Positions 13,201 through 57,253 of a stretch of DNA of 64,000 nucleotides are shown here, in pieces. Under the pieces are notes generated by a model. The model was given only the letters and a program-made list of their open reading frames with translations, was not told where the DNA came from and did not search any database. This stretch comes from Paraspadella gotoi (lineage: Eukaryota; Animalia; Chaetognatha): assembly GCA_051294375.1 (NCBI GenBank), contig CM119268.1, positions 3,886,992 through 3,950,991 on the forward strand, written 5' to 3'. Positions within the stretch are counted from its first letter, which is position 1; each line of letters begins with the position of its first letter. Made by a program: the position numbers and the translations under genes.

Positions 13201-13547
13201 CTTTCGTAATGATTTGTATAAAGGAGGCACATGTACTCGACATATACTTTCCACTCCCCCCCCCTTCTGTCCCCTTTTCCCGCGGCAACAGGCCGTCGTG
13301 GACGAAGCGAAACGTCATTTCCGCGCCGACGACGAACGAACTCGGGGTCGCGGCAGTCCTCCGTCGGCATCTCGGGCACCAAGTAGGGTAGGGTGAGGTT
13401 ACGGTGGGTAACAATGGGTGATGGTTCAGTAGTTTTAAGCTTAATATTTAACTTTAATGTCTTACAAATATATCTAACCAAACCCGTAACCCTAATATAA
13501 TTTTTTAGTCATTAACCATTCATCATTAATCCTTAATTATTACCATT

Positions 13548-13675
13548 GAAAGAGAGAGTAATGATTTTATGTGTTAGTGACAGAACCGTTCAATATAAGC
13601 AGTCCCTGAACTTCGGATCAGGCTGTAACACCGTGTTACAGGCGGGTTAAGCGCCCCGTCTCTCTTAACTGCTAC
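13548..13675 (-). mobile_element. Partial LTR of family 2 (mirror copy at ~19425-19553 on +)
   Basis: Matches the 3' half of LTR 48404-48635 (GCAGTTAAGAG...CTGTAACACGGTGTTACAGCCTGATCCGAAG...CTCTTCA). Confidence 0.8.
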
Positions 13676-14154
13676 TGCTAAGTTTAACGTTAACATCTTA
13701 TATGACATAACAATTTAGGGTCAATTATAATTAAATAATTTTAGCCGGGTTGCATGTAAATCCTGAGGTGAGAAGCTTCTCGCCATCTGGCCTTGAGAGA
13801 CTTCGGACCCTCAGCGGTTGCCCCAAACCATTGACGCTTTACGTTGTTTCCGTGACTCTATTCTGACGGAGATAACGCTTTAGGCCGCCTCGACCGAGAA
13901 ATCTCGTTGAAGTTCATTCGAATTAATATTGACTCTCTTCGTCGTTAATCTTTTCTGACTTCCTACCAACTTTTTCCCCTCCTCTTACCCCGCCCCCTTT
14001 CCCTCTTCCACCCCCTAACCCGTCCCGCCCCTTCTGGCCGAAAGGATTGCGAGGGAAGTCGCGTCGTCTGAAAAAGACGCCAAGAAAAACGCGGCGCGAA
14101 TTGCGGACAAGGCGAGGGGGGTGGGGCTGTGTTGTTGTTGTTTCAAAGATTCGC

Positions 14155-14340
14155 TTTTAGTATTCTAGCAAATTCGTAGTAGGATTTACGAGAGCGTTTT
14201 TTTTTTGTTTTTTTTTTGTTAAATATTTCGATTCTTATGGACGAATCATTTTTTCAAGCGGTCCATAAGAATCGAAATATTGACAGAAAAACTAAAAAAA
14301 AAAGCACTTGTAATCCTATACGAATTGCTTAATACTAAAT
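14155..14340. mobile_element. Foldback/MITE-like inverted repeat (mirror copy ~18750-18950)
   Basis: ATATTTCGATTCTTATGGAC...GTCCATAAGAATCGAAATAT core, with outer arms TTTAGTATT..GCAAATTCGTAG / TACGAATTGCTTAATACTAAA. Confidence 0.65.
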
Positions 14341-15584
14341 AATTATCTTCGAGTTTAATGTCTCTTCAACAACTGATTCACTTTTGTTGGATATGACGTT
14401 TGATTTTTTTTTTAATGTTTTTTTTTGTTAGTAAAAATATTTTAGGTACCATAAAGCCCCAAAGAAAGTCTACACAAGAGTTAAACTACGCTCGTCTCCT
14501 TAACTCTGATGCTTTAAGTCCTAAGTATCGTCTTATTTTTCCTGGGTATATTTTCTTGATACTGATTGTACAATTATGACATGTTTCATAATCGACGAAA
14601 ATATCAATTGTTCATATTTTTCTTTATTTAAAACTTTCATGCAGTCGTCAAACGAGGCTAACGCCATCATTGACTCGCGTCACGAGGTACCGTTTACTGA
14701 TTTGTTAATTAAACAACATAATAAATATATAAATAAAACCTGGTAAAGGGAATCAAGTTAAACAACAATTCAGATTCCAAAATATAAACGCCAAATCTAC
14801 TTTTACGTATTTTTATAAATCGATCCTATACCTAAATTCACACTCACTTCAACCTTACCTCACCTCAATCCCCTTTTTAAGAAAGATCACCCTGACTCCG
14901 CCCGTGCGGCGCCGAGTTCGCCCAACCGGTGCCAGCGCCGCCACACCAGGCACTGCCTCAGCAAGTCTGAGCAGAGAAGGCTGCTGCGTCAGGCGCAGTA
15001 CTTGAAACCGGGCAACGAGAAAAGCCTGAGAAGGTAGGTGAAGGGGTTTGGGTGGAGTTAATAGTATTGACTTTACTCAGTTAAATGTAATGGTAATAGT
15101 TTATAAATATTTCAAAATTTTACTTCGGCTGCACACGAAAATTATCAAAGCGAAGGAACGGATGGACGGAACGGAGGGAGACGAACGGACGGACATTGGC
15201 GCAGGGAAACGAATTTTTGAAAAAAATTGATTTCAAGTAGCTTTTTTATACAATATTATAATCCGTATGTCTCATTTACCGTGTCAGTCATAAATTTGGT
15301 CTGTATACTGTCTAGGCACCATTTTTTGGTCTAACATTTCTCTCTTCTCTCCCTGTCTCTCGTCTCTCTCTCTCTGTCTCTCCTCTCCTCTCTCCTCTCC
15401 TCTCTCTCTCGTCTCTCTCTCCTCTCTCTCTCCCTGCTCACACACTCGCTTGTTTAGCAAGGCATTTGGTTCGATGCATCCCTGAATTAAATGAAATAGG
15501 CTCTCGTTTTGACGTAAATCCAGAAAAAAGCCGAACGGAGGAAAAAAATATTGCAAACAAAAGGAAAAAAAGTTAATACATAAT

Positions 15585-15647
<63 letters not shown>

Positions 15648-16491
15648 AGATGAGAGAATCTAAGGAAAAAAGGAAGAAAGAAAAGTATTAACAAGGCGCG
15701 ATCATGTATTATGCAGTCGTTTACTTTCAGCATCATAACGAAGGCATAATGATTTGACGGGCCATCGACTTTCGTCGCGATGGATCAAAACGCAGACTTG
15801 TTTTTTATTGAGTTTTATTGAAGAATCTGTCTCGTGCAGGATTCCATTTCTTTTGTGTTGTGGGGCGGAGGGGGCGTGGGGAATAGAGATGTGCGAGGAA
15901 ACGACGTCGTGGTGGTTAAGTCAAAGGAGAAGAGTTATAAAAAGCTTTAATTTACAATATGACTATATGTACAGGACTACAATATAGATTACAATATGAG
16001 ATACCAGATATATTTTTTTTATCTTTTTTCCATTCTGGCTTTGGAATATTTCGTTTTATGTCAACTCTTAATTCTTAAAAATGGGACAAAATATTTTTAA
16101 AAATAGAACGTTAAATGTTTTTTCTTTTTAATTAAAATTGTATGGTAAAATTTTTTTTTAAATAAACATTGACTTAATTAAAAAAAACATAATACCACAT
16201 AAACCAAAAAAAAAGCTAAATACGAAGGAAGAGCAGATACATTACGGCGAATTTAGTCAATACTGCTTGCGATATTTTATGTAGGAATAAAATGGAAAGA
16301 GAGAGCAATAAAAAATATAAATCATAAAGGGAAAGACAGAGAATGACACAAAATGGAAAATTGGACAAATGGTAAAATCAGGTACAAAAAAAAAAAAAAA
16401 AAGGAAACTTTTGTTTTGTTTGTCCCACGGCGTCCCCTATAAGCGAAGCCATTTTTTTTTCTTTGAAAATATGAGAAAGAGAGAGAGAGAG

Positions 16492-16570
<79 letters not shown>

Positions 16571-17443
16571 GAGAGAGAGGAACAGAGACAGACGACAGAG
16601 ATTCTCCGGTATCCGTCTAACTCGATTAATTCAAAAATCCTGCTCGCAGCCCTTTCGCCTTTCTCGTGCCACACAAATCAATCTTTTTTGTGTTANNNNN
16701 NNNNNNNNNNNNNNNNNNNNACCTGATTTTATCCATTTCCAATTTTCCATTTTGTGTCATTCTCTGTCTTTCCCTTTTATGATTTATATTTTTTATTGCT
16801 CTCTTTCCATTTTATTCCTACATATAAATATCGCAAGCAGTATTGACTAAATTCGCCGTAATGTATCTGCTCTTTCCTTCGTATTTAGCTTTTTTTTTGG
16901 TTTATGTGGTATTATGTTTTTTTTAATTAAGTCAATGTTTATTTAAAAAAAAATTTTACCATACAATTTAATTAAAAAGAAAAAACATTTAACGTTCTAT
17001 TTTTAAAATATTTTGTCCCATTTTTAAGAATTAAGAGTTGACATAAAACAAATATTCCAAAGCCAGATGGAAAAAAGATAAAAAAATATATCTGGTATCT
17101 CATATTGTAATCATATTGTAGTCCTGTACATATAGTCATATTGTAAATTAAAGCTTTTTATAAACTCTTCCTCCCTTTGACTTAACCACCACGACGTCGT
17201 TTCCTCGCACATCTCTATTCCCCACGCCCCCCCGCCCCACAACAAAAAGAAATGGAATCCTGCACGAGACAGATTCTTCAATAAAAACTCAATAAAAAAC
17301 AAGTCTGCGTTTGATCCCATCGCGACGAAAGGTCGATGGCCCGTCAAATCATTATGCCTTCGTTATGATGCTGAAAGTAAACGACTGCATAATACATGAT
17401 CGCGCCTTGTTAATACTTTCTTTCCTTCCTTTTTTCTTAGATT

Positions 17444-17520
<77 letters not shown>

Positions 17521-17673
17521 ATTATGTATTAACTTTTTTCCTTTTGTTTGCAATATTTTTTTCCTCCGTTCGGCTTTTTTCTGATTTACGTCAAAACGAG
17601 AGCCTATTTCATAATTCAGGGATGCATCGAACCAAATGCCTTGTAAACAAAGGCGAGTGTGAGCGAGAGAGAG

Positions 17674-17724
<51 letters not shown>

Positions 17725-17854
17725 GAGACAGAGATCGAGAGCACATGAGAGACGAGAAATGTTAGACCAAAAAATGGTGCCTAGACAGTATACAGACCAA
17801 ATTTATAGACTGACAGGTAAATGAGACATACGGATTATAATATGTATAAAAAAG

Positions 17855-20800
17855 CTACTTGAAATCAATTTTTTTCAAAATTCGTTTCCCTGCGCCAATG
17901 TCCGTCCGTTCGTTCGTCCCTCCGTCCGTCCATCCGTTCCTTCGCTTTGATAATTCGTGTGCAGCGAAGTAAAATTTGAAATTTTATTTTAAACTTTTAC
18001 CATTACATTAACTGAGTAAAGTCAATTACTTTAACTCCACCCAAACCCCTTCACCTTACCTTCTCAGGCTTTCTCGTTGCCCGGTTTCAAGTACTGCGCC
18101 TGACGCAGCAGCTTCCTCTGCTCAGACTTTGCTGAGGCAGTGCCGGAGCTGGTGGCGGCGCTGGCACCGGCGTTGGGCGAACTCGGCGCCGCACGGGCGG
18201 AGTCAAGGGTGATCTTTCTAAAAAGGGGGATTGAGGTGAGGTAAGGTGAAGTGAGGTGAATTTAGGTAAGGATCGATTTATAAAATACGTAAAAGTAGAT
18301 TTGCGTTTATATTTGGAATCTGAATTGTGTTTTAACTTGATTCCACTTTACCAGGTTTTATTTATAATTTATTATGTTGTTTAATTAACAAATCAGTAAA
18401 CGGTTACCTCGTGACGCGAGTCAATGATGGCGTAGCCTCGTTTGACGACTGATGAAAGTTTAAATAAAAGAAAATATGAACAATTGATATTTCGTCGATT
18501 ATGAAACATGTCATAATTGTACAATCAGTATCAAGAAAATATACCCAGGAAAAATAAGACGATACTTAGGACTTAAAGCATCAGAGTTAAAGGGAGACGA
18601 GCGTAGTTTAACTCTTGTGTAGACTTTCTTTGGGCTTTATGGTACCTAAAATATTTTTACTAACAAAAAAAAACATTAAAAAAAAAAATCAAACGTCATA
18701 TCCAACAAAAGTGAATCAGTTGTTGAAGAGACATTAAACGAGATAATTATTTAGTATTAAGCAATTCGTAGTAGGATTTACAAGTGCTTTTTTTTTTTAG
18801 TTTTTCTGTCAATATTTCGATTCTTATGGACCGCCTTGAAAAAATGATTCGTCCATAAGAATCGAAATATTAACAAAAAAAAAAACACAAAAAAAAACAA
18901 AAAAAAAAACGCTCTCGTAAATCCTACTACGAATTGCTAAATACTAAAAGCGAATCTTTGAAACAACAACAACACAGCCCACCCCCCTCGCCTTGTCCGC
19001 AATTCGCGCCGCGTTTTTCTTGGCGTCTTTTTCAGACGACGCGACTTCCCTCGCAATCCTTTCGGCCAGAAGGGGGGGGACGGGTTAGGGGGTGGAAGAG
19101 GGAAGGGGGCGGGTAAGAGGAGGGGAAAAAGTTGGTAGGAAGTCAGAAAAGATTAACGACGAAGAGGAGTCAATATAATTCGAATGAACTTCAACGAGAT
19201 TTCTCGGTCGAGGCGGCTAAAGCGTTATCTCCGTCAGAATAGAGTCACGGAAACAACGTAAAAGCGTCAATGGTTTGGGGCAACCGCTGAGGGTCCGAAG
19301 TCTCTCAAGGCCAGATGGCGAGAAGCTTCTCACCTCAGGATTTACATGCAACCCGGCTAAAATTATTTAATTATAATTGACCCTAAATTGTTATGTCATA
19401 TAAGATGTTAACGTTAAACTTAGCAGTAGCAGTTAAGAGAGACGGGGCGCTTAACCCGCCTGTAACACGGTGTTACAGCCTGATCCGAAGTTCAGGGACT
19501 GCTTATATTGAACGGTTCTGTCACTAACACATAAAATCATTACTCTCTCTTCAATGGTTAATAATTAAGGATTAATGATGAATGGTTAATGACTAAAAAA
19601 ATTATATTAGGGTTACGGGTTTGGTTAGATATATTGTAAGACATTAAAGTTAAATATTAAGCTTAAAACTACTGAACCATCACCCATTGTTACCCACCGT
19701 AACCTCACCCTACCCTACTTGGTGCCCGAGATGCCGACGGAGGACTGGGCCGCGACCCCGAGTTCGTTCGTCGTCGGCGGAAATAGACGTTTCGCTTCGT
19801 CCACGACGGCCTGTTGGGGGAAAAGGGGACAGAAGGGGGGGGGGAGTGGAAAGTATATGTCGAGTACATGTGCCTCCTTTATACAAATCATTACGAAAGT
19901 TAGGGACGTGGAAAACGGAAAAAAAACCCTAGGTCGTTAACGATAGTATATTTTATTTTAATTTTATGTTGGTACATCAAAAGGGTTTTTTTTTTAAACT
20001 TTGACAGGGCAGAGCAATTAAATAATTGTTTCATTTTTTATCCCCTTTTTTTATCGTGAAAACACGGACAAAATTAGATCGGACCTGATAGCAAAAACGA
20101 AACTGTTCCCAAGATTGAACCAAACTCATTCTGCATTTTCGGAGACCAATGAGGAGCTGCACCATGTCGCAAGGTTCCATCGTGTTCTGTCGTGAAAGTT
20201 TGACAAAAGGGTTTCTATCTCGTTATCTCACTTCGCTCTCTTTCTTTCTCTACTCTTCGTCCTACTCTGGCTTTCATGAGGAAAAGCATCGAATCGATGA
20301 GAATAAAAGATCCAGATCTTCCGATTCCCGCGCTGCAGTGAACGACTAGTGGCGGCGCCCCGTGATCCAAAGCGCCGCTGGCTTTTACTTTAGAAAAATA
20401 AACAAAAGACAATCGAAAATTAAAAGGAAAGTAGTATTTTTAGTTCAGAGCAAATAAAAGAAAGCTTGTTTAGACGTGTTTTTTTTTTTCAACTAAAAAG
20501 ATAAAAAGAAAATTTTATTTTCGCAAAAATTTTAAAAGAGTTTTTTTTGTTTTACAACAGATTATGTAAATTTAATAATAATTAATAATAAATAATAAGC
20601 CAGTAATGGAGTCACCGGCGTAGAGAAGCGACATCATGTCCTTTGACTCGAAGGGAACTCCAAAGTCTGGCCAAGTCGTGAAGTGAAAGTGTAGAATCTC
20701 ACGACTTTGTGTGTTGTTGTTGTTGCTGTTGAAGCGGTTGTTGTTACTGATGTTCTTTTTCTGTCGGAGCTGTAGTCTGTCAAAAGAAAGAAATAAAGAA

Positions 20801-23800
20801 AGAAACAAAGAAACCAAGAAACCAAGAAACCAAGTAAGAAAATAGCAATACAATGAGCACTCGGATAGACCCATCAGACCGACCGACCGAGCGACCTGGT
20901 CAAGTTGTAGCAATCCTTGGTTTCCATGGAAACGAACATGAGCTCCAAATCGAGGCCATCGAAGCTGAAACCGTCGTTGTCGCCAACTCGCGACCCGAGA
21001 GGCCAATACCTAGACCACGGAGGAATCGCGGTTGCGAGGTATTGCAGGAGTCGATGGACAATGAAGTTTTTGAAGTATTGCAGATTGTATTGGTGGTTTC
21101 GTTTTCCCGATGAATGAATCGGAAATAAATTTATGGAATGTGTTTGGAATATAAAAGGTATTTCGAATGTTTTTTTGGTGTCAATAACTATGCTCAGTAG
21201 CTAAATAAAAGGTAAGAAATAATTTGGGATAATCTCAAGAAGACAATTAAAATTTGACTTGCTGAAAACTCTTAAGAATTGTTAAATATCAATACTAAAA
21301 AATATATAATAATAATAATATTAATAATAATAAAAGACTTACGAGGCGCATTTAGGTCTATTATTCTCCATGACATTGTTCAACATGACGATAGCGCGAC
21401 AATTTTGCTCCCACATCATTTGCCAAAAGTGAGGCACGGTGTGATCCAAAGGTCCCTGTTTGTTGGAATACTTTTTGACATTATGATTAAATTTATTGGT
21501 CTCTTGTTTTCTCTATAACTGTAGCAACGACGTAATCCTATATTACTAACTAAATTTATGTGCTGCCATCTTGAAATAAGTGTTGTAAATATTTTGTAAG
21601 AAACAAAAGTCAAACCCTTATATAAAAGGTAGCTTCACTTGTTTGAGTCACTCCTGGCTAAAAGGATGTTAGTATTTGTCTTGTAAAAAATGATTATTTT
21701 TTCTTTAAAGAATAAGTTTCTAATAAATTGTTATTTTTAGTTTTTAGTGCTTATACTCCTTGCTAAAAATGGAAACTACAATGCCATCTGCTTTAAATTC
21801 GTTATTGTCTCCTGTTGTCTACATAATTATGAACTTATGTAATAAAACGATTTAAACTTTAAAATTCCTTGAAATGCCAATTAAACAAACTCGAATTGAA
21901 CATCCTCAGTTAAAGAATAATAAATATAACGTTTAATATCTCGTCAACTAACCCTCAAAACGTCCGTTACTCGATCAGTGTTGATTATTATGTTTATTTT
22001 AGTTATTGGTAAGTTACTAATAAGTTAATAATAATACAAAATTATAACTGCACGATAATTGGGCTAAACGTTTATGCGAAAAAGAGTCAGATTATATATA
22101 TCGCAAAATAATAATTACCAATCGTGAGTTTTTAAACATGTATAAAAATACGAATTCCGGTCGAAAAAAAAATTGCGGGCCACCCCTTTAGCTCGATTTG
22201 GGTTAAGTACTCGTTCGAATTCTCTGACCCTTACCCAGACTAATCCCCAACCCCCTCACCCAGAATACCCTCACCTGGGTCAGAATGTATCTCCGGTCCA
22301 AATCCGGAAATCCGGCGAGGTCTCCGTTGACGTGGTTGGCGTTGATGTATTCAACGCCACCGGAACGAAGTTTGACGCGGGTTTGATCGTAGGGGAGGAC
22401 GTCTCTTTGGGGGGGGGGGTATGGTGGTTGGGTCGGGGTGGTCGAGGTGGTCGGAAGAAGAGATACGAAAGTGAATCGTCATGTCATGTCATGTCATTCC
22501 ATTTTTATATCGATGTTTCGACTTTTATGTTTGGCGTCAGTGTGTCACAATGAAATTAATTATAAAATATCAATGAGGAAAAAACATTTATTTTAATAAT
22601 AATAAAAAGATTAAGTAAAAATACTATTCCAAAGAAAAATTTTTAAAAAGGATGCCGTACCAAACTAAAGGGGACTGCGCCAGGCGAATGCTTCTATTTT
22701 TAAAACACCATAACTAATAACAAACATGATATTTTTCCTTTGCATTTCACGACGCAAACCAATTTATTTAACGGCCTCTCACGGTCAACCCCGCCCAGCG
22801 TTTATCGCCGTTATCATCATCATCGTCATCATCTTCATCATCATGGTCGTCATCTTCAAAGTCATCATCGCGGTCCTGGATCTTAAGTGAAGAGGACAAT
22901 TTTAAAAGGATATGTTTTTTTTTTCTCCAAAGAAGAACGTAAAGTTTTTAACGATTCGGCGAATTTCTCCGCCGGTCCAAAAAAACAGCGGCAATTTTTG
23001 AATCTGAAAATGAAAAAAAAAAGAAAAAAAGAAAACAAAACAAAAACGGACGAAAGAGCAGTAAAGAAACATATTAACATATTAACTGTTGAATAACAGT
23101 TTTATCAAATCGTCACATTCTTTACACACGAAGGGAGCACCGATGATGACTACGATGAACACTACTGATTTCTACAGATGACTACTGATGACTACTGATG
23201 AAAACGATATAAGGAGAGAGTTTTTTGCCTTTAGTTTTTTTCAAAAACACTTAGAAAATAAAATCTTTTAAACCTCTTTTTGTAAATTTTAAAATATAAA
23301 CAAAAAAAGAGAAAACCTAATTTAAGAAGAGTATTATCGAATATCGTATCGTAACTTATGTAGAATGTCCACGGTCCAAGGACCATTGCCCAATGCCCAA
23401 TGCCCAATGCCCAATGCTCAATGCCCCAATTGCTCCATGCCTGTATCGATTGAACTGTTGATTCGTGGGATGTTTGGCGATCCTTGTCGTCAGCCTCGCC
23501 TCCTCAACGGCCGCGTGGGAAGCCTCGTTCACTGACTAAATCGATCAAGCAATCGATATACCAATCACTAATCAATCAAGCAATGAGTCGTTCAATCAAT
23601 CAATTAATTAATGAAACATTTGATAAATCAATCAGTCAATCAACCCATGAGATACTGCGTTCAATCCTCAATGGAAGGAAGCGTGTTGGCGGCCGCCTCA
23701 AGCCTGGTTCCAAGCCCAGGACCCGTTCCATTGCCGCTTAAGGGGAACAGATAGTCTTCATATCCACACCACCGGCTTTACCCTAAACGACGAGGGCCAA

Positions 23801-25489: not shown

Positions 25490-25751
25490 TTTCTGGCCCC
25501 CCCCACACCCCTCGCTGTCCAGTGTCCACCGCCTCTATATTCCCTTGTCTCTTATCTTTAACCACCCTCTACCATCCCTCTTCATTTATCCCCACCACCC
25601 TCAAACCCTTGACACCCTAATCCCCACACGCACACCCCTACACCACTCCGCCACTCAACCTGTCGCTTTTCGCTTTCATCCTTTTTGTTTTGATTTCGTC
25701 TCATTTTTATTTTGTTTTTTTTTCCTTCGTCGATGAACTTCTTGGTCTTTC

Positions 25752-25806
<55 letters not shown>

Positions 25807-25807
25807 T

Positions 25808-25849
<42 letters not shown>

Positions 25850-26311
25850 GTGTCGCATATGTAAAGAATTAAGTACTTTTTCACGAAAGCCTTGAGGAAT
25901 TTTTGTAAAAAATTAGCTAGATTTTATACTGTAACCACATAGATTCAAGTCGAATCTTACTTTTACAATACGAAAAACTAATTTAGAAAGCGTGTTTTAT
26001 TAACAATAATTGATAATATGGAGAAAAATAGACAAAGAAAATATTGCGGCCAGAAACTATCTATCATCTTTCCTTTCGTCTTAATCTTAAATCATCTCGT
26101 CGTCGTCGTCGTCGTCGTCATAACTATCAAAGGTAGAAATGAAATATGTCGTCCATATAGAAAAGAGACGCGAAATTGACGAGACTTTCGTGCCTTTTAA
26201 CATTTTATATCTTTATTTTTTTATATCTTTTTCATTTGATTTTTTTTCTCTCACTTTCGGGCGGCGAACGAATCCATTCATCCCCAGCCGTATCAGTCAC
26301 CCGCGTTTCGT

Positions 26312-26403
<92 letters not shown>

Positions 26404-29180
26404 CATATTAAAAAAATTATTAAAAGTGTTGGTCAACTTTTAAATCGCAACGTTTTTTATAAGTTTTTCAGGTCGCATCAATTTAAGCGGTACATTGTAA
26501 TTTGCATATTGTAAAAGTTGTTTGTTTTTTTATTATTTCCTCATTCACCCATTTGTTCCACCTTCTTTTTATAACAAGGGTTCAGACGCGAAATAGCACT
26601 TTCGTGAATTTCATGAAATAAATTAAAATGAACTAAATCTCCTTTCTTCATCAACTTTTTTTACATTTTTTTAAAAATAATTCAATCCATAATGTTTAAT
26701 TTGAATGGTGCGGACAAAATTGTTAAGGGCGACCGATTTCGCCGACCGCTTGTTTGAAAAAATCTCGTATTTTATTCTGAATTTAGATTTTTATCAGCGA
26801 ATATCATTAAACTGACGTTTGATTAAACGACGTTCACGACTTGACTCTATCTCTCTCTTTCTTTTTCTCTCTGCTCTCTCTCTCCTGCAATCTTTTTATT
26901 CTTTTTTAAAGAATGAATTTCTGAATTTTAAACTTCTCATTCTTGAGAAAGTTTTAGATAAAATCTTGCAGGAAAACAGTTGTACTCTTTCGATCCGTGA
27001 TCAAGTAACCACTGTTAGAACATCACAACAACATCCCTAACAAAATGTATAAAAAAAAAAAAAGGATGAGAAACTGAGAGACAAGAATTTTCCCTCATCT
27101 CCCGCGAACGCTTGACCTTTCCGACCCGACCTTCTCGTTAATTCTCCGCTCGCTTCCTCATTAACTTCCACTCTGTGTCTCATATTTTTTCTTTTTTTTT
27201 TTACGATTTTCTTTTTTTTCCGATGGCGATAGACTTTTTCTTTTTTTTTTTTTTTAAGGCGCTCATTTTTATTCGTTATTATTTTTCCCGCGGACGGACT
27301 GACGACGAACGGACGGACGGAAAGCCAGAAAGAGGACGGACAGACGAACGGACGGACAGACAGAGGGGTCGAATGGACGGACGTCCCGACCTCTAGCGGT
27401 CATCAATCAAGATTCGTGGAAAAGACGAAAAATTTGGGAAAAAAAGTCTGGGAGGCGAAAATGGCGATGGAGGTGAGTGAGTGGAGAGAGGTGAGAAGTG
27501 GGAGAATTTGGTGGTGCATTTGCTCTCTCTCTCTCCCCCCCCTCTTCTCATATTTTCACGTCGCATCCTCTTCCTCTCCTGAGTTTTCTTTCTACCTTCC
27601 GATCCTCTTCCACTTCCTCCATCTCTTCCTCCTCCTCTTCCACCTTCCTCCTCCCTCTTCCTCTTCCTCCCATCTCTTCCTCCTCCCTCTTCCTCTTCCT
27701 CCTCTTCCTCCCTCTTATAAAAGCCGTCCTCTCTCTCTCTCTCGTCACCACCAGAACCGAAATAATCGAGGATCGGACGTCGAATCCTCTGATCAGGAAA
27801 AAAAAAGCCCGGGATCCAAAACCCGCCTGGGAAATCCGTGGGTCAGAGAGAGAGAGAGAGCGAGAGAGAGACAGAGACAGAGACAAAAAAACGTCGCAAG
27901 CTTCTCTCTTTGGTCAGCGCGACTCTCAGAGTGAAAGGTAAGTTCAATGTCTAATTTTCGTTGTATTTGTTGTTATAATCATAGTTTTAAAAATAAGTTT
28001 AGTAAAGAAATCACTACTTTCGGATTTATGTCGGACTCTTATGAGCCAGATTGCTTCTTGAAGAAAGAATTATTTTATACAATCCTTCACCCTTCAGATG
28101 TAAACTTACCAATATTATTTTATTTTTTCTCATCATAACTTTCCTATCTTCAACATTACTTACCTTTTAATTTTGACCCGCATTGTTTAAAAAGGAAACT
28201 TTAAAGATAATGTTTCATTCATTGGTTAGACGGTACGTGATTTATTTTATCATTCAGCTATATTTTTATATATATATTTTTTGTATATATTTTTCAATTC
28301 TAAAAAAGTTAAAACTCACGCGACAGAGTCCGAGACGCAAGATGGCGACGGAAAAGTTGAGTCCAAAACATCCGGATTGGATTTGGCTTCAATCCCCGTC
28401 CGATCAGCTGATGGCCGAAAGGTCTGCTCCGTTTGATCCGAAGGTGAGGATGATTCGGCGAGTTTTACGGATGAGTCACATAGATAAGTCTGACTGTTGA
28501 TATTTTTTGTACTGAACATTAATTGATTGAGACTGAACTGAACTGAACTGAACTGAACTAAAGTGAACTGAAATGAACTGAACTGAACTGAACTGAAATG
28601 AAATGAACTGACTGAACAGAACTGAACTGAAATGAAATGAACTGACTGAACTGAACTGAACATTAAGTGATTGAGACGGCGGTTATCGTCCAGAATGAAG
28701 CTTGGCTAAATGAATGAAGAATGAAGAATGAAGCTTGGCTCTTTGAATAAATGAATGAAGAATGAAGCTTGGCTCTTTGAATAAATCATTCATGAATTGA
28801 TGAAATGATGAGAAAACGAATATAGGAGAAAGATTAAATTAATGATTGCAAGCTGCATGAATGATAGAATCAATTGATCAATCAAGTAATAAACCATTAA
28901 ATGAGTCAATGAAAGAATCAAATCCTAAATCAAAGACCAGATTCACTGTTGAATTTATTTATGTTTGAATACCCGAACAAATATAATATTATAATTTTAA
29001 GATTTAGGATGTAAAATCATCAATTAATTAATTAATTAATTAACTTACCCGAATTTTCTTCTAGACGGAATGTTGGGTGGCTGACCCGGAACTTGTCTAC
29101 GTGAAAGGAAAGATTGTTGGAGGAGACGGCGACAAAGCCATTCAAGTTCAGACCGAAAATGGCAACGTGAGTGGAACTCG

Positions 29181-29257
<77 letters not shown>

Positions 29258-30636
29258 TTTGTTATAACGCTCTATCTTATTTGCATATTGCAGTATTGAT
29301 CTGTATACTCATTACGAGCAAACGCTCTCGTTTACCTAATTACCTTTAATTAATAATTAAAAAAGATAAAAAAACAATCATTTTTTTCTCGCGTTCTAAT
29401 TGGTGGAAAAAAATAATTCTTTGCTGCGATTAGATAAGTCTTCGTTCTTGCTTCAGCGTCTATGCGACGTCGGTTAAATGTTACGTTATTTTATTTTTAA
29501 CATGGAAACATCCTGGCCAATAAAATTAACTTGGCAAATTTTTCTCCATTTTATCAATACTGTTGATGAGATTTTAATTCAATTTGAAGTATTATTTTTA
29601 ATATCCTTGTCTCTCTTAGTCCTACACACTCCCCAAAGAAGAAGTTCTGGAATGCAATCTCCCCGAAGTTCCACAAAGAGGAGGACATGTCCAACTTGTC
29701 AGTCTTGAACAAGTTAGTTCAGACTTTTATTTCCTGACAGATTTGAATGTATCAGAATGTGTAAAAAAAATATTTAAACGTAAGCTGAGCTTTTTATTAA
29801 TAACAAAAAAAAATCACCGCTCATTTCAATAGAGTAGCGAAATTGTGTAAAATCGGTACCACAAATATCAAAATTATTAATTCGTTCAATAAATAAATGC
29901 AAATTTAATAATTTGATAAAAAAGAATATGGCGTAAAAAACCCAAACAATTCTCCTTTCTCCTCACCCCCTCTCCCCCCTTCACTTACCTTGGAAAAAAA
30001 GAGCCTGCGTCCTGCAAAATCTCCGCAGCCGCTACGTCGTGCTGCAATCTACACCTACTCGGGTCTCTTCTGCATCTGCATCAATCCTTACAAGTGGCTC
30101 ATGGTCTACACGCCCATCATGAGAGCGCATTACAGGAACAGGCGGAGGAACGAGGCCCCGCCGCATCTCTACGCCGTAGCAGACGGAGCGTTGCAGCTGC
30201 TGGAGATGGGTGAGGAAGGAATGATGATGATGTTGATGATGATAATCATGCCGACGAAGATCGTATTATTATTAATGATGATGATAATGACGACGACGAC
30301 GTTGATTTTGATGATGATAATAATGATTATGATAATGATGACGACGACGATTATGACGATGACGATAATTGATGATTGACGATGATTATGAAGACAATGA
30401 TGATCACTGGACGATTCTTTTATTCGACCCTAAAATCCATAGAGCCTTTTTTGTAGTTAGAATAATTTTAAGCTTAAGCTTTTTTTTATGATCAACCATT
30501 TTACTTTTTACCCAATCGCTTCAGAGAGTAAGAATCAGTCGTCTCTCATCACCGGAGAATCGGGAGCAGGAAAAACGGAAAACACTAAAAAAGTCTTGCA
30601 GTACTACGCTCTCAATTGCGCGGATCCGAAAGTCAG

Positions 30637-30679
<43 letters not shown>

Positions 30680-30757
30680 ACTAATCATCTAATTGCCTTC
30701 AGGCCGCCAAGTCCAAAGCTGACACTTTCGGCAAGATGGGTTCATCTCTCTCTTGGG
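25490..30757 (+). repeat. ~5.3-kb direct duplicate of ~37227-42520 (myosin promoter and first exons)
   Basis: Near-identical; differs in microsatellite length and single-base indels; ends at the N-gap. Confidence 0.92.
28342..30745 (+). pseudogene. Truncated duplicate of myosin heavy chain coding exons 1-6 (probable assembly or haplotype duplicate)
   Basis: Same exons as 40142-42520 ([17 protein letters not shown]), with frameshifts near 29660 and 30047, cut by the gap. Confidence 0.75.
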
Positions 30758-30782
30758 NNNNNNNNNNNNNNNNNNNNNNNNN

Positions 30783-33700
30783 AAAGATCAAAAGAATTTC
30801 GAAGAGGAGTTTTCCGACTCTCGAGCGATGGAAACAATTTATCTGAGTCGAGGTTGCATCTTCAACCGCGAAGTCTTGAATCCGTTAAAGAAAAAATCCC
30901 TGCAATGGAAGCAGTTGAGATGTGGGACTTTCCATTATATAAAATGCAATGGAACTCTTTAATTGATCAAAAATTTATTAACTTACCATTTTGAGATGCG
31001 ATCGTTTAATTAAAACACTTACCTTCACAGTTAATACTATTACTTACTGTTCGAAGATGTCCGATCCAGTTGGTGTGCAACGATACCTTCAAGAATGGGA
31101 ACACCTCTACGATGAATGAGGAAAGATGGACGACAAACATTTGCGGAAGGACCTCAATGTGAAAGGAGCAAAGAGGCGAAGTCGAACGGCATCCAGAATG
31201 GCACAAGTACAAACCTGAAGACATCAAAATGAAGCTGAAGGAAGCCGCCGAAAAGGACGTCCGAAACGCGTTAGGATGGAAGAAGACGGGCTGTGATGCT
31301 CAAATTTCACCAGAAAGAAAAGACTGAAACTTATAATGAGATTTACAATATGATTGATGAATATATAAAGGAAAACAGGAAGAAATTCAAATCCTGTCTT
31401 AAATCGAACTTACCTTGTTTAAATTATTTATGTTTTGCCTTCAGGAATATTCAGAAACAATGCAAGGCTGCAGTGGGTTACCTTGCCTATCGATATAAGG
31501 ACTTTCGAGCATTCATAGTAAAAGAACGGAAGAGTTGAACAATGAAGCTCCCGATTGTGTTGAAAAGTGTTTCGACCTCATCAAAAACTATTCCTTGGAA
31601 CTGAAGCAATTGCAGGAAGTCCGCTGAAGGTCAAGACGAATCGAATCAAATTCTTGGGAAGAGGAAATATGCTTCATCGAGAAATGGAAGAAGATTCGAC
31701 TTGCTGGAAGGGCGCATCTTCATAAAGAAAGTGTCGAGACATAATGGAAGAATTGCCATGAGAAAATAACTCAAACTTACCTCAAAGTTATTCGGTTCGC
31801 CTTCTTTCACTAATAATTGTCTTATTTTTAAATAAATTTATTCAGCTCTTACTTGCTACAATGGCTCAATGAAATCCATTTTCGAGATTCAAGATGAGAT
31901 TGCTCGCGATTGGGAGAGAGCGAGGAATATCAAAGATCGTTTTGAAGAATTCTGCGGTTGAGAGCATAGTCTTTCGGGAATATGAAATTCGAATCCGGAA
32001 GAAAAGGGGAAAGAGAGGAAAGGATGAGAGGCAATAAAGCCATCGAGGCGTCCGAACTGTACAAGGACATCAAGAATTGGAAGATCGCCAAAAATGGGCA
32101 AGGAATGCGAAAACCGCAAAAGACCAGAATCTTGGTGAAATTTATGATGAAATTGAAAGGCCGGGCAAAGAGACTCCAGGATCAGGCAAAAGAACGTTTA
32201 ATGAAAATATAAAACAAAACTTAATCTTTATTAGGCATTCCGGATTAGTGATTTATATCAATTGTATCAATTCACTTACCTTGTAGTTACAGAATGACAT
32301 TAAATTCTGAGTTTTACGTTCGAAGAAATGAGACTTGTTTGCCGATCATATTTGGTTCCGGATTCGTTGGAAAGAGCTTTAAAAAGACTTGAAGAGGCTT
32401 TGAAAAGGAATTGGCTCAAGAAGAACAAGAAATTGAAAAGGGACGAAAGGAGAAAGGACAAACGAAGTATCGAATGCCATGAAGGGCAGACAGAATATTT
32501 GCAATATCGCATTAAGATGCTGAGGAAATGGCCGGACATTTTGAAAAAAGATGGGAAAAATATTCGCCACCAGAATTTACAGAATTCCTGAGTATTGTTG
32601 AAATTTTTAAATACTTACCTTTTTCTAAATTTCAGCTTCTCACTAATATTTTAAAATGTCTGAAGTGAGAAGAACTTCAAAAAAATACGCCAGAGAAACG
32701 CGATATTCTGGCTACCTACCAATCTTGAAGACGCACTGGATGAAATCCAGAAGAGAGAAGACAATTGGTCCGAAGAATTCAAGAGTATGGATCCATGGTG
32801 CTGATGAACGAGAATTCAGAACAATTGCACAACTTACCAGATGGGCGAAAATCCTGGAAGACAAAGAGATATATTTTCACTCGGAACCAAAACTGTAATG
32901 GAATTTACCTTGCTAACTTACCTGTTCTTTTTTTTTGGTCAAGTCAAAGCAAATTTGACATTTTTTGATATCTTGATAATCAACTTATTTTCAGGTAAAA
33001 ATGGATTTCATTGCTTTTAACAAGAATTCGAGATCAATTAAACAGAGACTGGATGCAGCTCAACGAAAAGCCATGGGGTCAAGAGAAGACAAAATCCATC
33101 ATCGATCTGACTATCAGGGAAATGCCCTATGGAACCTGAGAGAAGAAGGGATCAGAAGACAAGTTCCTCAACCATTGCTGAAATCAGAAAGGAAGTGAAA
33201 AGTCAACCGACATCGTACGGCTGATCGGGAGGCTCTGAAGATCAAACCTGAAACGCTAGCATTTATCTCCGGTTTTATGAAGCGCAGAAGGAAAAGATGG
33301 AGACTCTTGAAAGAGAGAATTCTCTTTAACAAACCTGTAACGGTCATCATCATCAATTGCCTATATTTGGTGTATTCCATTCGTTATTAATTGAAATGTT
33401 ATTTATCTGTTTATTCATTTATTAAGCTTATCAAAGTATGTCAAGAGAACAAGACTTTGATCATTGGATTCGTGGCCATAGCCAAATTACCTACGTTATA
33501 AAAACTCGAATGAAACAAGAGGTTAATCAAAGGATGCCGAGTTCTGCGGAAGAGTCCCTCGAACAAGCCAGAAGCAACGACTCGGAGATGGCAAGAATTG
33601 AAAACCGCTGTCGAGACGAAACTGGCAGAAAACCCTGCGGCGGACGTCGAAGCCGAAAGAAAAAGAATTCAATTTATCGACGACGAAAATACAAACTGGT

Positions 33701-35373
33701 CCTTTGGGCGATGTTTAAGATTCAACGAGGAGATCTGTTTCGCTCAAAAAACTTTAAATGAAATCGCGCCAAATCAACGCGAGAATTAATATTTGTATTG
33801 TTCGTAATATTATTGTTTGGTTGCTCAATTGAGTTTATTGTTTTGAATAATCAATTACCTGTTCTCAAACTTACCCTTTAACAGTGTGTCTTTCCGATAA
33901 TAAGCGCTATCGCACTAAAAACCTCGAACGCTCAACTGCGCGAATCTTTATAAACTTTGAATTAAAAAATTACGCGATTTGAAGGAGTCTTCACCGAATC
34001 CAAAGCAATAACTTATTCTAGGTGAGAATGTCTGTCACTTACCTGGAAGACTATTATTTATATGTAATTATTACACAAATTATTCAATATACTCACCCAT
34101 ATTCAGATGCTCACTCTCGTGACACGATGTGGGAAACGAAGAGCTCCTCACCTCCGCTCGACGTCCAGGAGAGGACTACGCCTCCATCTTCCCGTCGACC
34201 CCTCTCTTCGATTCCGAGAATTGCGCGAATCCGGACGATGTCGCAGGCTTCAACAGAAAGGACCGTGAACCTCTGCACCCCTCCCAACCCCAATACCCGT
34301 CCCAACTTCAACACCCGTCAATTCCGAACGCTCCACCCGCTTTCAGCTCACCTATTTCCCCCCTCATGAATCTTCCGGAGTATTTAAACTGTCATTTATT
34401 GTGGGATTATCATTGCATTATTATTTTTATTACTTACCTGGTGACTTTCGCAGTCGACCATACCTTCAACGTCAACCTCTAACGCAGCGTTGGAGGACTC
34501 CACATCAAGCGACGGCAACTCTGCCGTACGAGATTCCGCCAACTCCGAAGACCCCCGCCCAACTTACCGACGACCTTGTTTGGGCCGCCTTCGCGAAAAA
34601 TACCGCCGATTCGATGAGAAACGGAAAGATAGACACCTCAAATGCAACAATAACTTAAAGTCTCCTCGCGCTGAACAACGAAAACATTCCGTTCATCATC
34701 GGAATTCAGATGAATGGAAGTTCAGGCCGGATGTTCCGCTTTCCGGCAAGATCGGAAAGTGGATAAAGACGTGCCGTAAGAATTGGCGAAAAGTCGCGAG
34801 GAAAAGGCGGATTGATTTCGTAAAGTTCGTCTTCGAAAATTCTTGGACTGATCGTCAATCCAGCGAAGGCCAAGACGAACGGCTCCATTTCCCTTCCAGC
34901 GGCGACAAAAAGGCGACCTCAGCAAAACGAACGTCGTCGTCAAAGCTCCAGCTCATCAACGTCTTCGTCGTCCATTGCCGAAAAGTAGCGCCGCCCGGCG
35001 TGCCACTAGCGTCGTCGTCTTTCATCGACATCCCAGCGGAAAACGAAAAAACCGCGAAGCGACGAAGTTCGTCGTCTCCTGGCCGAGAAAGAAGCTCTCA
35101 AAATGGAACGCGACAAATACAAGGCTCGCGCAACAAAGTACGAAGAAGAACTCGCTCAGGAAAAGAAAATTGCGTGAAAAGGATCGCGATCGTTACGAGG
35201 AAAAGATCCAGAAACTAAGGGAAGATTGCGACAAGCGTATCGATAGAATGACGGAAACTCACCTTCATGAAATAAGGAGCTGCGCGAAGCTCTTTGCGCT
35301 CCTCGGCAATCTTCGAAATCTCATTCGCCATCAAAGAACAAAGAAAATCGTGAGTCGCCAAAATGCGCGTTAA
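30783..35373 (+). other. Cluster of co-oriented short orphan ORFs (frameshifted) separated by short AT-rich spacers
   Basis: GA-rich coding-like blocks with ATGs at 31057, 32294/32328, 32656, 33001, 33438 and a block at ~34107-35373 (Pro/Ser-rich, a Trp/basic segment, coiled-coil-like end). No family recognised. Confidence 0.55.
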
Positions 35374-35444
35374 TAGTGAACCCTTTAAAATCGCGGTCAC
35401 TCGTCCCCACTTACCTGCCTTTGACCCTCCTCCCACCTCCAATA

Positions 35445-35790
35445 TTTGACGAAAAACCCCGTCAATCCCCACCCCCCCATAAAAAACATAAAAAGTAATA
35501 TCACTTACCTGTACATATTTTCATCCTTATTTATCTGTATTTACGATTTCCATGTCCAAAAATTGGCGAAAACCCCCGTCAATCTCCACTTACCGTGTTC
35601 TGATCCCATTTTTTCGTGTCTAAAAATTGGCGAAAACCCCGTCAATTCTCACCTACCTGTTATCCTGATCTTATTTTCCGTGCCCAAAATTGATGAAAAC
35701 CCCCGTCAATCCCACTTACCCGTTCTTCAATTCCCCTTTCCATTCTTTTATGTATTCATCTGACAAAAACCCCCGTCAATTCTATCCTAT
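35445..35790 (+). repeat. ~60-bp degenerate repeat AAAACCCC(C)GTCAAT..CACTTACC, 5 units
   Basis: AAAACCCC(C)GTCAAT near 35453, 35568, 35633, 35696 and 35766. Confidence 0.8.
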
Positions 35791-36384
35791 AAAACAGTGA
35801 AATTGGTATAATTACTCGCTATATATTAACATTATTATCGGTCAGTTTAATTTTGTACCATAAAGAATCAAATTTATTTCAACTTGGCGTAAATTACCTG
35901 ATACGTCTCAAAACAATTTATTATTAAATGTTAATCAACTATCACAATTATTAATCATTATTATTACTTACCTACGATCCAATTTGAGTTATTACTTGAA
36001 TATTATTGTCGTATATTCTGGTGTAAATTAACATTAATGTCGAATGATTACTCACCTGTTCCCTGGCTAAAAGTAATAAATATTATGGACAACGTAATAA
36101 AGTAAAAGGTTTTAAATTTTCAAATTAGATAGTCGAGAAAAAACAAGTACAAATTTAATTACCCCTCACAAATGGGGGAGAGTGAGACCCTTTTTTTCAA
36201 AAGCTAACTTCCCAAACTAAACCCGAGTAAATTCAAACAGCACATAATTTGTGTGGAAATAATTAATCGATCGAGACAAACTGAGACGCGTTTCCATGAC
36301 AACCGAGTTCGTCGAAAGCTTGAACGATCTGATTCTGTACCGAAAGTCCGACGGTGGGAGCGGACCGGTCCAAAAGGACGAATC

Positions 36385-36600
36385 TGCAGACGGATCGCCG
36401 ACGGATCGCGGATGGGATCACCGACGAATCTGCAGACGGGATCGCAGATGGGATCACCGACGAATCTGCAGACGGGATTGCAGACGGGATCGCCGACGGA
36501 TTGCAGACGGGATCGCCGACGGACTTGCAGATGGGACTGCAGACAGGATCGCGACGGGCATCGCAAGATGGGACCGCGGACGGGCTAGCAGATGGAATTA
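36385..36600. repeat. GC-rich tandem array of 11-12-bp GACGGGATCGC(A/C) units
   Basis: Repeated GCAGACGGGATC / GCCGACGGAT motifs. Confidence 0.8.
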
Positions 36601-37515
36601 TCGAACGATCGAGATCGGGTTGGGAAATTGCAGCCGCAAACGGGGGAGTTATCGCAGCATTGCAGCATCGGGGATGCAGGCCTTTGGGACGGGGGAGTAA
36701 GAAGGAAGAAATGATAAAACCTCCTTCAAGATGACGCAGTCTGAAATGATTTAGATGTACCACTATGTCTGCGCTTTCTTTATTTGGCAACCTTGACATA
36801 CGAGTATTACAATGTTCCAAGGTGCGAGTGTAACAATAGGCCGCTAGCATTAATGGTACGAGCGGAGAATGGGATGGAACGATGATCATCTGTTTCCTAA
36901 TAATCCCTTACTTTCACCCTCTACCGTTCTCAGGTTCCAGCTCATTCTCCGATGGAAGGCCGAATCGTAAACATCGAAAATAATAATTTTCTACTATTTC
37001 ACAAAAATGTAAATATTTAATTAAATATTTATTATTATTATAACTAAGAATTAATTAATAAATTAATTCTTCCTTCCATTCTAGGTTTTGAACAAATTCC
37101 ATTGTTCTTATTTTGGAATTCCGCGAAAATGTATCGTCTTCTAAAATATACCTTGGTAGTTCTACATTAGTGAATTATATTTAAGGTATTAATAGTATAG
37201 ATTAGTTAGCATTTTTAATCCTCCCCTTTCTGCCCCCCCCCACACCCCTCGCCTGTCCAGTGTCCACCGCCTCTATATTCCCTTGTCTCTTATCTTTAAC
37301 CACCCTCTACCATCCCTCTTCATTTATCCCCACCACCCTCAAACCCTTGACACCCTAATCCCCACACGCACACCCTACACCACTCCGCCACTCAACCTGT
37401 CGCTTTTCGCTTTCATCCTTTTTGTTTTGATTTCGTCTCATTTTTATTTTGTTTTTTTTTCCTTCGTCGATGAACTTCTTGGTTCTTTCATCATCATCAT
37501 CATCATCATCATCAT

Positions 37516-37550
<35 letters not shown>

Positions 37551-37565
37551 TATCATTTCATCATC

Positions 37566-37603
<38 letters not shown>

Positions 37604-38069
37604 GTGTCGCATATGTAAAGAATTAAGTACTTTTTCACGAAAGCCTTGAGGAATTTTTGTAAAAAATTAGCTAGATTTTATACTGTAACCACATAGATTC
37701 AAGTCGAATCTTACTTTTACAATACGAAAAACTAATTTAGAAAGCGTGTTTATTATTAACAATAATTGATAATATGGAGAAAAATAGACAAAGAAAATAT
37801 TGCGGCCAGAAACTATCTATCATCTTTCCTTTCGTCTTAATCTTAAATCATCATCGTCGTCGTCGTCGTCGTCGTCATAACTATCAAAGGTAGAAATGAA
37901 ATATGTCGTCCATATAGAAAAGAGACGCGAAATTGACGAGACTTTCGTGCCTTTTAACATTTTATATCTTTATTTTTTTAATATCTTTTTCATTTGATTT
38001 TTTTTCTCTCACTTTCGGGCGGCGAACGAATCCATTCATCCCCAGCCGTATCAGTCACCCGCGTTTCGT

Positions 38070-38205
<136 letters not shown>

Positions 38206-39513
38206 CATATTAAAAAAATTATTAAAAGTGTTGGTCAACTTTTTAAATCGCAACGTTTTTTATAACGTTTTTCAGGTCGCATCAATTTAAGCGGTACATT
38301 GTAATTTGCATATTGTAAAAGTTGTTTGTTTTTTTATTATTTCCTCATTCACCCATTTGTTCCACCTTTCTTTTTATAACAAGGGTTCAGACGCGAAATA
38401 GCACTTTCGTGAATTTTCATGAAATAAATTAAAATGAACTAAATCTCCTTTCTTCATCAACTTTTTTACATTTTTTTAAAAATAATTCAATCCATAATGT
38501 TTAATTTGAATGGTGCGGACAAAATTGTTAAGGGCGACCGATTTCGCCGACCGCTGTTTGAAAAAATCTCGTATTTTATTCTGAATTTAGATTTTTATCA
38601 GCGAATATCATTAAACTGACGTTTGATTAAACGACGTTCACGACTTGACTCTATTCTCTCTCTTTCTTTTTCTCTCTGCTCTCTCTCCTGCAATCTTTTT
38701 ATTTTTTAAAGAATGAATTTCTGAATTTTTAACTTCTCATTCTTGAGAAAGTTTTAGATAAAATCTTGCAGGAAAACAGTTTTACTCTTTCGATCCGTGA
38801 TCAAGTAACCACTGTTAGAACATCACAACAACATCCCTAACAAAATGTATAAAAAAAAAAAAGGATGAGAAACTGAGAGACAAGAATTTTCCCTCATCTC
38901 CCGCGAACGCTTGACCTTTCCGACCCGACCTTCTCGTTAATTCTCCGCTCGCTTCCTCATTAACTTCCACTCTGTGTCTCATATTTTTTTTTTTTTTTTT
39001 TACGATTTTCTTTTTTTTCCGATGGCGATAGACTTTTTCTTTTTTTTTTTAAGGCGCTCATTTTTATTCGTTATTATTTTTCCCGCGGACGGACTGACGG
39101 ACGAACGGACGGACGGAAAGCCAGAAAGAGGGACGGACAGACGAACGGACGGACAGACAGAGGGGTCGAATGGACGGACGTCCCGACCTCTAGCGGTCAT
39201 CAATCAAGATTCGTGAAAAAGACGAAAAATTTGGGAAAAAAAGTCTGGGAGGCGAAAATGGCGATGGAGGTGAGTGAGTGGAGAGAGGTGAGAAGTGGGA
39301 GAATTTGGTGGTGCATTTGCTCTCTCTCTCTCCCCCCCCTCTTCTCATATTTTCACGTCGCATCCTCTTCCTCTCCTGAGTTTTCTTTCTACCTTCCGAT
39401 CCTCTTCCACTTCCTCCCATCTCTTCCTCCTCCTCTTCCACCTTCCTCCTCCCTCTTCCTCTTCCTCCCATCTCTTCCTCCTCCCTCTTCCTCTTCCTCC
39501 TCTTCCTCCCTCT

Positions 39514-39521
39514 TATAAAAG
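39514..39521 (+). promoter_or_regulatory. TATA box of the myosin gene (duplicate at ~27716); non-coding exon ends AAAG|GTAAGT at 39734
   Basis: TATAAAAG follows a long CCT-rich tract, ~220 bp upstream of a perfect donor. The next acceptor precedes the ATG exon. Confidence 0.55.
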
Positions 39522-40141
39522 CCGTCCTCTCTCTCTCTCTCGTCACCACCAGAACCGAAATAATCGAGGATCGGACGTCGAATCCTCTGATCAGGAAAAA
39601 AAAAGCCCGGGATCCAAAACCCGCCTGGGAAATCCGTGGGTCAGAGAGAGAGAGAGAGCGAGAGAGAGACAGAGACAGAGACAAAAAACGTCGCAAGCTT
39701 CTCTCTTTGGTCAGCGCGACTCTCAGAGTGAAAGGTAAGTTCAATGTCTAATTTTCGTTGTATTTGTTGTTATAATCATAGTTTTAAAAATAAGTTTAGT
39801 AAAGAAATCACTACTTTCGGATTTATGTCGGACTCTTATGAGCCAGATTGCTTCTTGAAGAAAGAATTATTTTATACAATCCTTCACCCTTCAGATGTAA
39901 ACTTACCAATATTATTTTATTTTTTCTCATCATAACTTTCCTATCTTCAACATTACTTACCTTTTAATTTTGACCCGCATTGTTTAAAAAAGGAAACTTT
40001 AAAGATAATGTTTCATTCATTGGTTAGACGGTACGTGATTTATTTTTATCATTCAGCTATATTTTTATATATATATTTTTTGTATATATTTTTCAATTCT
40101 AAAAAAAGTTAAAACTCACGCGACAGAGTCGGAGACGCAAG

Positions 40142-57253
<17,112 letters not shown>

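Follow-up and report, generated by a model that had tools for sequence, protein, structure and literature searches.

The window analysed here is a stretch of 64,000 nt from the chaetognath Paraspadella gotoi (assembly GCA_051294375.1, contig CM119268.1, positions 3,886,992 to 3,950,991 of the forward strand). From position 30783 it carries a compact cassette of short orphan genes on the plus strand, through which the heptamer ACTTACC recurs in one orientation. An earlier note, made from the letters alone, had proposed that this motif guides spliced leader (SL) trans-splicing of an operon. Both the one-strand signal and the orphan gene array that bears it are real, and the signal is striking; judged on sequence, it is best read as a series of U1-type 5' splice sites on the antisense strand.

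A frameshift-tolerant coding scan gave 74 for the plus strand (13 ± 4 in shuffles) and 13 for the minus strand (3 ± 2), with eight coding blocks, while 35400-36300 showed no coding on either strand. The scan bears out the previous description of an operon-like array of orphan open reading frames (ORFs), arranged head to tail on the plus strand. The same-strand genes are less than 250 bp apart, as in chaetognath SL operons. The cassette and its parts are as follows.

30783..36100, plus strand: multi-gene cassette, left end cut by an assembly gap; candidate shared polyadenylation (poly(A)) signals at 36075 and 36096
30791..30973, plus strand: coding block 1, from the coding scan; 5' end lost in the gap
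31057..31769, plus strand: coding blocks from the coding scan, acceptors at 31030 (ATG 31057) and 31444 (ATG 31460)
31861..32212, plus strand: coding block from the coding scan, acceptor at 31845 (ATG 31861)
32294..32898, plus strand: coding blocks from the coding scan, acceptors at 32286 (ATG 32294) and 32635 (ATG 32656)
33001..33330, plus strand: coding block from the coding scan, acceptor at 32994 (ATG 33001)
33438..33789, plus strand: coding block, acceptor at 33426 (ATG 33438); its spacer lacks ACTTACC
34022..34106, plus strand: probable cis intron GTGAGA...TTCAG, containing ACTTACC and ACTCACC; called on sequence and donor score and not seen spliced in RNA
34107..35390, plus strand: longest gene, Pro/Ser-rich, with a basic Trp-containing stretch and a coiled-coil-like end
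34380-34453, plus strand: probable cis intron within the longest gene
35375..36100, no strand assigned: non-coding 3' tract where motif density peaks, with five copies of a ~63-nt unit at 35443-35800 and 302 nt without a plus-strand AG
30981..36058, minus strand: U1-type 5' splice-site zone, 27 sites with at least seven of nine matches and 17 with at least eight of nine

The four AG-before-ATG sites named previously (ATG 32294, 32656, 33001 and 33438) are all present, and three further ones precede the ATGs at 31057, 31460 and 31861. Chosen by eye, these seven acceptors stand 6-26 nt upstream of their ATG, and all seven start codons have A at -3, against 36/88 in the background. The suggestion that the spacers show no good GT donor holds in part: plus-strand donors are mildly scarce rather than missing, both by U1 matching (one site with at least seven of nine matches versus 4.4 ± 2.0) and by a host donor matrix (6 versus 10.1 ± 2.9). 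Acceptors on this strand are no more frequent than in local shuffles (11 versus 10.8). AATAAA occurs in one of eight spacers and twice at the cassette end, at 36075 and 36096, a distribution which suggests that the plus-strand genes give 3'-coterminal mRNAs ending near 36100.

No cassette product has a credible homologue. Pfam searches with 41 and 8 cassette fragments gave nothing above the curated cut-off, 29 fragments searched against PHROGs reached a best E of 0.0016, and word-indexed protein searches with two fragments found no match. The segment 34703-34879 had three matches among representative proteins, all of them repeat proteins; two were helicase-associated (HA) repeat proteins, at ~30 bits per repeat, so the resemblance to HA repeats is a hint only. 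The same segment had no related locus in viral and metagenome contigs, and the related-locus search with two other fragments returned three short chance matches only. Single-sequence fold prediction of 59 aa gave one helix. The ORFs show no paralogy to each other, Rfam gave two matches, both far below gathering score, and no transposase, reverse transcriptase (RT), gag-pol or viral hallmark was found in the visible 6.4 kb.

All 17 copies of ACTTACC that the earlier note listed on the plus strand within 30783-36160 are exact, and GGTAAGT has 0 copies there, as it had claimed. Markov models of the region predict 0.18-1.4 copies. The rest of the window, taken as a non-redundant reference of 45,923 nt with 14 copies counted on both strands, predicts 0.82, giving a 21-fold excess (Poisson P ~4e-17). 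Most copies were said to lie in AT-rich spacers: 15 of the 17 do lie in AT-rich non-coding stretches, and the other two are in coding blocks, where the enrichment is not significant (2 versus 0.56, P = 0.11). Density peaks in the non-coding 3' tract, which has no ORF and no plus-strand AG over 302 nt, and the tandem ~63-nt unit at 35443-35800 holds two exact copies and one variant. Within the cassette the motif occupies eleven 300-nt bins. Motif-array scans of viral contigs returned 44 loci, tandem repeats for the most part, and among the at least 208 viral loci listed, which were picked for paired motif copies, none has more than six bins of 300 nt occupied by the motif.

Read on the minus strand, the motif resembles a splice donor, ACTTACC being the exact reverse complement of the generic donor MAG/GTAAGT (slash at the splice junction). 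The core CTTAC is preceded by A in 18/19 copies in the region and followed by C in 17/19, then by T in 12/19 and then by G or T in eight copies each; copies elsewhere (41 and 45) lack such flank bias. The variants read GTGAGT, GTAGGT and GTAATT on the minus strand, all with CAG kept at -3 to -1, and the pattern of variation matches U1 pairing at nine positions. Scored against the nine-base U1-pairing consensus, 17 minus-strand sites have eight or nine matches, against 0.38 ± 0.58 in shuffles; only 1 of 19 host donors scores as high. The host set comprised 21 of 22 candidate introns (one without GT was dropped) and 19 of their 21 donors (two doubtful ones were dropped), placed mostly by eye and tblastn and in three cases by RNA joints. 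Minus-strand acceptors are not enriched in the cassette (12 versus 11.2 in shuffles), the partner acceptors 35-110 nt downstream of the 27 donor-like sites are no better than in shuffles (P = 0.39), and several sites are separated by just 13-36 nt. From 36300 to 37230 no minus-strand site has seven or more of nine U1 matches. Dense antisense U1 sites, which the earlier note had listed as an alternative to its own model, fit best.

The setting of the cassette bears on whether it is mobile. A stretch at 25490-30743 is repeated at 37227-42519 with 97.5% identity, each copy containing the 5' portion of one and the same muscle myosin gene; this is probably an assembly overlap or haplotype rather than a true duplication. 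The intervening 30783-37211 lies upstream of only one of the two myosin copies, consistent with either an insertion into a single haplotype or a mis-join. RNA contigs of the species cover most of the region and differ from it by ~2-3.5% indels (for example, 17 gaps over 492 nt and 21 over 1037 nt); the frameshifts are therefore likely to be sequencing errors for the most part. A second copy is represented by an RNA contig 93% identical over 34463-34750, in which 11 of 19 substitution intervals are multiples of three despite the indel errors (P = 0.024); this test used substitution spacing alone, synonymous calls being circular. The previous description of the cassette as possibly mobile or virus-derived is upheld as to copy number, which exceeds one; no transposase, RT or viral hallmark was found. 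Three features adjoin the cassette:

30758..30782, no strand: gap of 25 N, directly after which the cassette starts
36296..36700, plus strand: open frame containing 12-nt tandem repeats, beyond the motif zone
36580..37211, plus strand: well-expressed multi-copy sequence that stops where the duplicated host DNA begins; a roughly GT-AG joint at 37009/37087

The last of these contains a short inverted repeat (36863-36951), has related families that differ internally, and is mosaic and multi-copy in RNA. A purine tract at 36687-36711 is followed by TG at 36712 and CA at 37210-37211, an unproven, candidate arrangement of the long terminal repeat (LTR) type. The host myosin shares 80-86% identity with marine plankton proteins and 55-63% with its counterparts in rotifers, mites and vertebrates, values that suggest a chaetognath-like host. 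Elsewhere in the window, 10379-16383 and 16721-22594 form a near-duplicate pair with indel differences, flanking a second 25-N gap and probably also an assembly overlap; the near-duplicate pairs at the two gaps are direct and inverted.

The explanation we favour, which we would give about an even chance of being right, is that a mobile multi-gene cassette has its antisense strand coated with U1 sites, which suppress poly(A) signals and keep the antisense RNA nuclear, while the plus-strand genes receive a leader. Mobility, antisense transcription, U1 binding and leader addition are all steps that we infer. U1 suppresses premature use of poly(A) signals, an activity termed telescripting. The U-rich spacers, needed as plus-strand splice acceptors, would create poly(A) signals on the minus strand; the U1 small nuclear ribonucleoprotein would bind the minus-strand sites on a long antisense RNA, suppress the signals lying just downstream, and hold the RNA on chromatin, in the nucleus. 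Only some of the sites would act as true donors, the best candidates being 36055 and 32921. Plus-strand mRNAs would receive a leader at each acceptor, either a trans-spliced SL or a single leader in cis from upstream, and would probably share a 3' end near 36100. A subset of the motif copies may also serve as plus-strand branch points. The arrangement of poly(A) signals is consistent with this scheme: all ten minus-strand AATAAA hexamers lie 6-75 nt downstream of a donor-like site, and nine of the ten are within 70 nt of an upstream site, compared with 56% of spacer positions (P = 0.026). Even for the motif-free spacer at 33330-33426, a site in the next ORF (33490) covers both antisense AATAAA.

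Several observations weigh against this explanation. The ten hexamers form ~seven clusters, which makes the poly(A) geometry weak. Of 13 spacer copies, six are found 10-23 nt ahead of a plus-strand AG (2.8 expected, P = 0.037). Position alone does not tell the strands apart, since a plus-strand spacer's 3' end is also the 5' end of an A-rich minus-strand tract. The sense strand of the myosin gene carries four ACTTACC in its first four introns (0.31 expected, a post hoc comparison), two of them at branch-point distance. 'Mobile' rests on copy number and on presence at one of two locus copies, because no element hallmark was found. The RNA evidence comes from run X1, spliced RNA of the same species in the form of contigs, listed apart from 16 loose ends; as the run is unstranded, minus-strand transcription of the cassette is presumed. 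Myosin exons reach thousands-fold depth in X1, with GT..AG joints, and host introns 0-8x. The cassette is covered at ~3-8x by unspliced contigs, with no splice joint listed in 30783-36500 at this low depth. One contig of 1,042 nt spans two plus-strand acceptors and five minus-strand donors unspliced, and the cover across acceptors 32994 and 33426 is unspliced at 3-8x. The cover may be background, because host introns show 0-8x too, and X1 speaks only weakly against efficient splicing of either strand.

An alternative which we regard as unlikely, though it accounts for some of these points, is that ACTTACC acts on the plus-strand RNA, as a strong branch point, as a docking site that pairs with a GTAAGT donor (of a cis leader, or of the host in trans), or as both. 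The six spacer copies close to an AG lie in the range of host YTNAY sites, and ACTTACC occurs in the last 50 nt of 2 of 21 host introns, one of them the RNA-confirmed myosin intron 41490-41779, which has a copy 18 nt before its end, with an A-rich run and no pyrimidine tract before the AG. The motif zone also stops at the two plus-strand AATAAA (36075 and 36096). Against this, the better U2 partners are missing: the region has 18 ACTTAC and no ACTAAC or ACTGAC, so ACTTACC is not a general branch-point consensus, and the acceptor-tied YTNAY family led by CTAAC/CTGAC is matched only by a partial positional tie to acceptors. In addition, the 3' tract, which has no acceptor and is AG-free for 302 nt, holds eight copies or variants, one acceptor spacer has no motif, and the copies at 31042 and 31848 are downstream of acceptors.

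The sites might instead be ordinary donors of a fully spliced minus-strand transcript overlapping the cassette (a micro-exon long non-coding RNA (lncRNA) or a gene): short introns such as 36055-36018 and 32921-32854 are plausible, TTGAC is found 15 times on the minus strand and 3 times on the plus strand, and micro-exons below 31 nt would escape contig placement. Acceptors show no excess, however, and several sites sit 13-36 nt apart; there is no minus-strand coding signal where the motif is densest, and the 1,042-nt RNA contig passes five sites unspliced. We consider such a transcript distinctly unlikely. We give somewhat less credence still to a form of spliceosomal cap-snatching independent of SL, in which U1 mimics on the plus-strand RNA would pair with host GTAAGT donors and capture capped host first exons; such a reading would account for the fit of the motif to a generic rather than an SL donor and for the six of 13 spacer copies at branch-point distance from a plus-strand acceptor.

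In SL operons of the C. elegans type, guided by an Ur element, a stem-loop precedes the Ur motif. The earlier note's model, in which an Ur-like motif steers SL trans-splicing by pairing with the donor of the SL RNA, draws on the operon-like spacing and the acceptor-ATG units, on TACCTT, a listed Ur type with eight copies on the plus strand and none on the minus, and on the prevalence of SL trans-splicing and operons in chaetognaths (described in parts of PMC12460157 and PMC2481426). Putative SL RNA genes were sought with part of the chaetognath SL2.0 leader as published, and of 20 metagenome loci fetched, three (L049, L058/L059 and L064) carry such genes, two of them as tandem arrays:

L049:214-340, 909-1035; L059:12, 765, 1444; L064:795, metagenome loci: putative chaetognath SL RNA genes

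The arrayed genes are ~680-750 nt apart, with three predicted hairpins after the donor and no Rfam match; the copy at L059:1444 has a divergent 3' part. The putative donor is AAA/GTATGT in all three loci, although these are metagenome genes whose class may not be the host's. The complement of this donor (ACATAC) and TACTTT are absent from the plus strand of the cassette, and pairing is weak: motif sites pair with AAA/GTATGT at -2.1 to -4.2 kcal/mol compared with -9.0 to -14.4 for a GTAAGT donor (perfect-complement reference, -12.0), and with the whole SL RNA at -6.8, compared with -6.5 for control spacer windows. An Ur element would sit ~50 nt ahead of every trans-splice site, and the layout does not conform to this: the distances here are 12-91 nt, one acceptor spacer is motif-free and many copies have no acceptor. 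AATAAA is present in only one of eight spacers, and there is no ACTTAC upstream of a host gene whose ATG (60163) follows an acceptor by 15 nt. With the donor complement absent, pairing weak, and the motif densest where there is neither ORF nor AG, a role for ACTTACC as an SL-donor guide is not supported, provided that the host uses the AAA/GTATGT class of SL, and we now rate it very improbable. It is just as hard to credit that the motif is a DNA signal (a protein-binding site, or a virus or transposon promoter element) resembling a donor by chance: strict orientation, presence in the tandem unit and the presumed nature of the U1 role would allow it, but variation follows U1 pairing at nine positions and none of the viral loci listed exceeds six occupied bins, against eleven here.

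Other features of the window lie outside the cassette. The myosin gene has a 9-kb intron (43531-52499) with nested minus-strand genes, putatively TENA/THI-4-like, that show CT..AC joints in RNA; two or three of the copies are similar. An SNF2-type helicase gene, presumably HELLS/LSH-like, occupies 60148-61960, and its ATG follows an acceptor-like AG by 15 nt. An interspersed repeat of ~230 nt, SINE-like by appearance, has several copies (48401-49056, 50133-50338, 13542-13674 and 19427-19558), and tRNA-Met and tRNA-Lys genes stand back to back at 1421-1494 and 1592-1666.

If the antisense U1 coat is correct, a compact gene array has evolved antisense U1 sites far stronger than the donors of its host, apparently keeping its antisense RNA intact. 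It would be a natural, sequence-visible case of U1 function independent of splicing in an invertebrate mobile element, and would offer a way to test why splice sites occur in the antisense RNAs of retroelements, a matter called elusive in the relevant part of PMC2615633. The strand-asymmetry signature could also find orphan-gene elements missed by homology searches; a literature search for such a signature found no report, which is weak evidence of novelty.

Among known systems, adenovirus-type shared-leader units likewise express several co-oriented ORFs by splicing. Bdelloid LTR elements with a spliced ORF3, and Terminons, resemble the cassette, in the portions of PMC5408684 and PMC6431247 that describe them, in their co-oriented accessory ORFs, coiled-coil-like products and expression by splicing. 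The cassette differs from them in having no RT, gag or hammerhead in the visible 6.4 kb; for the Penelope-like Terminons in particular, neither a hammerhead match in Rfam nor an RT was found in this error-rich visible part. The cassette is without assignment to any element family. In Caenorhabditis elegans, Ur is a TACCTT-containing motif upstream of intercistronic acceptors (sections of PMC7668243 and 10.1101/642082); the cassette motif is unlike it in having many copies, no fixed ~50-nt position and no complementarity to the putative SL donor. Chaetognaths trans-splice about half of their genes and have operons, and those resolved by SL share with the cassette same-strand genes less than 250 bp apart and an acceptor shortly before the ATG. 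As portrayed in the same parts of PMC12460157 and PMC2481426, however, chaetognath operons hold housekeeping genes with a poly(A) site beside the acceptor, whereas the cassette has orphan genes and AATAAA in one of eight spacers.

The closest parallels concern the antisense strand. TART and HeT-A, the Drosophila telomeric retrotransposons, produce antisense RNAs that are non-coding, donor-rich and nuclear (passages of PMC1636488 and PMC2615633), and like the cassette they pair a coding sense strand with a non-coding antisense strand rich in splice sites, concentrated in a repeat-containing 3' region. Their introns, in those passages, are complete and spliced (53-104 nt, with one of 489 nt), whereas in the cassette the antisense donors are found, acceptors are not enriched, paired acceptors in short introns are lacking (P = 0.39) and no splicing was seen at low RNA depth. 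The cassette sites also span the whole multi-gene array, with no RT or telomere in view, unlike TART/HeT-A. U1 motifs retain lncRNA on chromatin (parts of 10.1101/310433 and PMC12211998). What telescripting and U1-retained lncRNAs have in common with the cassette is that strong U1 sites, without a partner, stand close to poly(A) signals of a non-coding strand. In mammals this retention is, in those parts, a statistical trend across sense strands and lncRNAs, whereas the cassette would carry a dense antisense coat on a compact array. The antisense U1 coat is best read as a variant of known behaviour, with a mechanism that is predicted.

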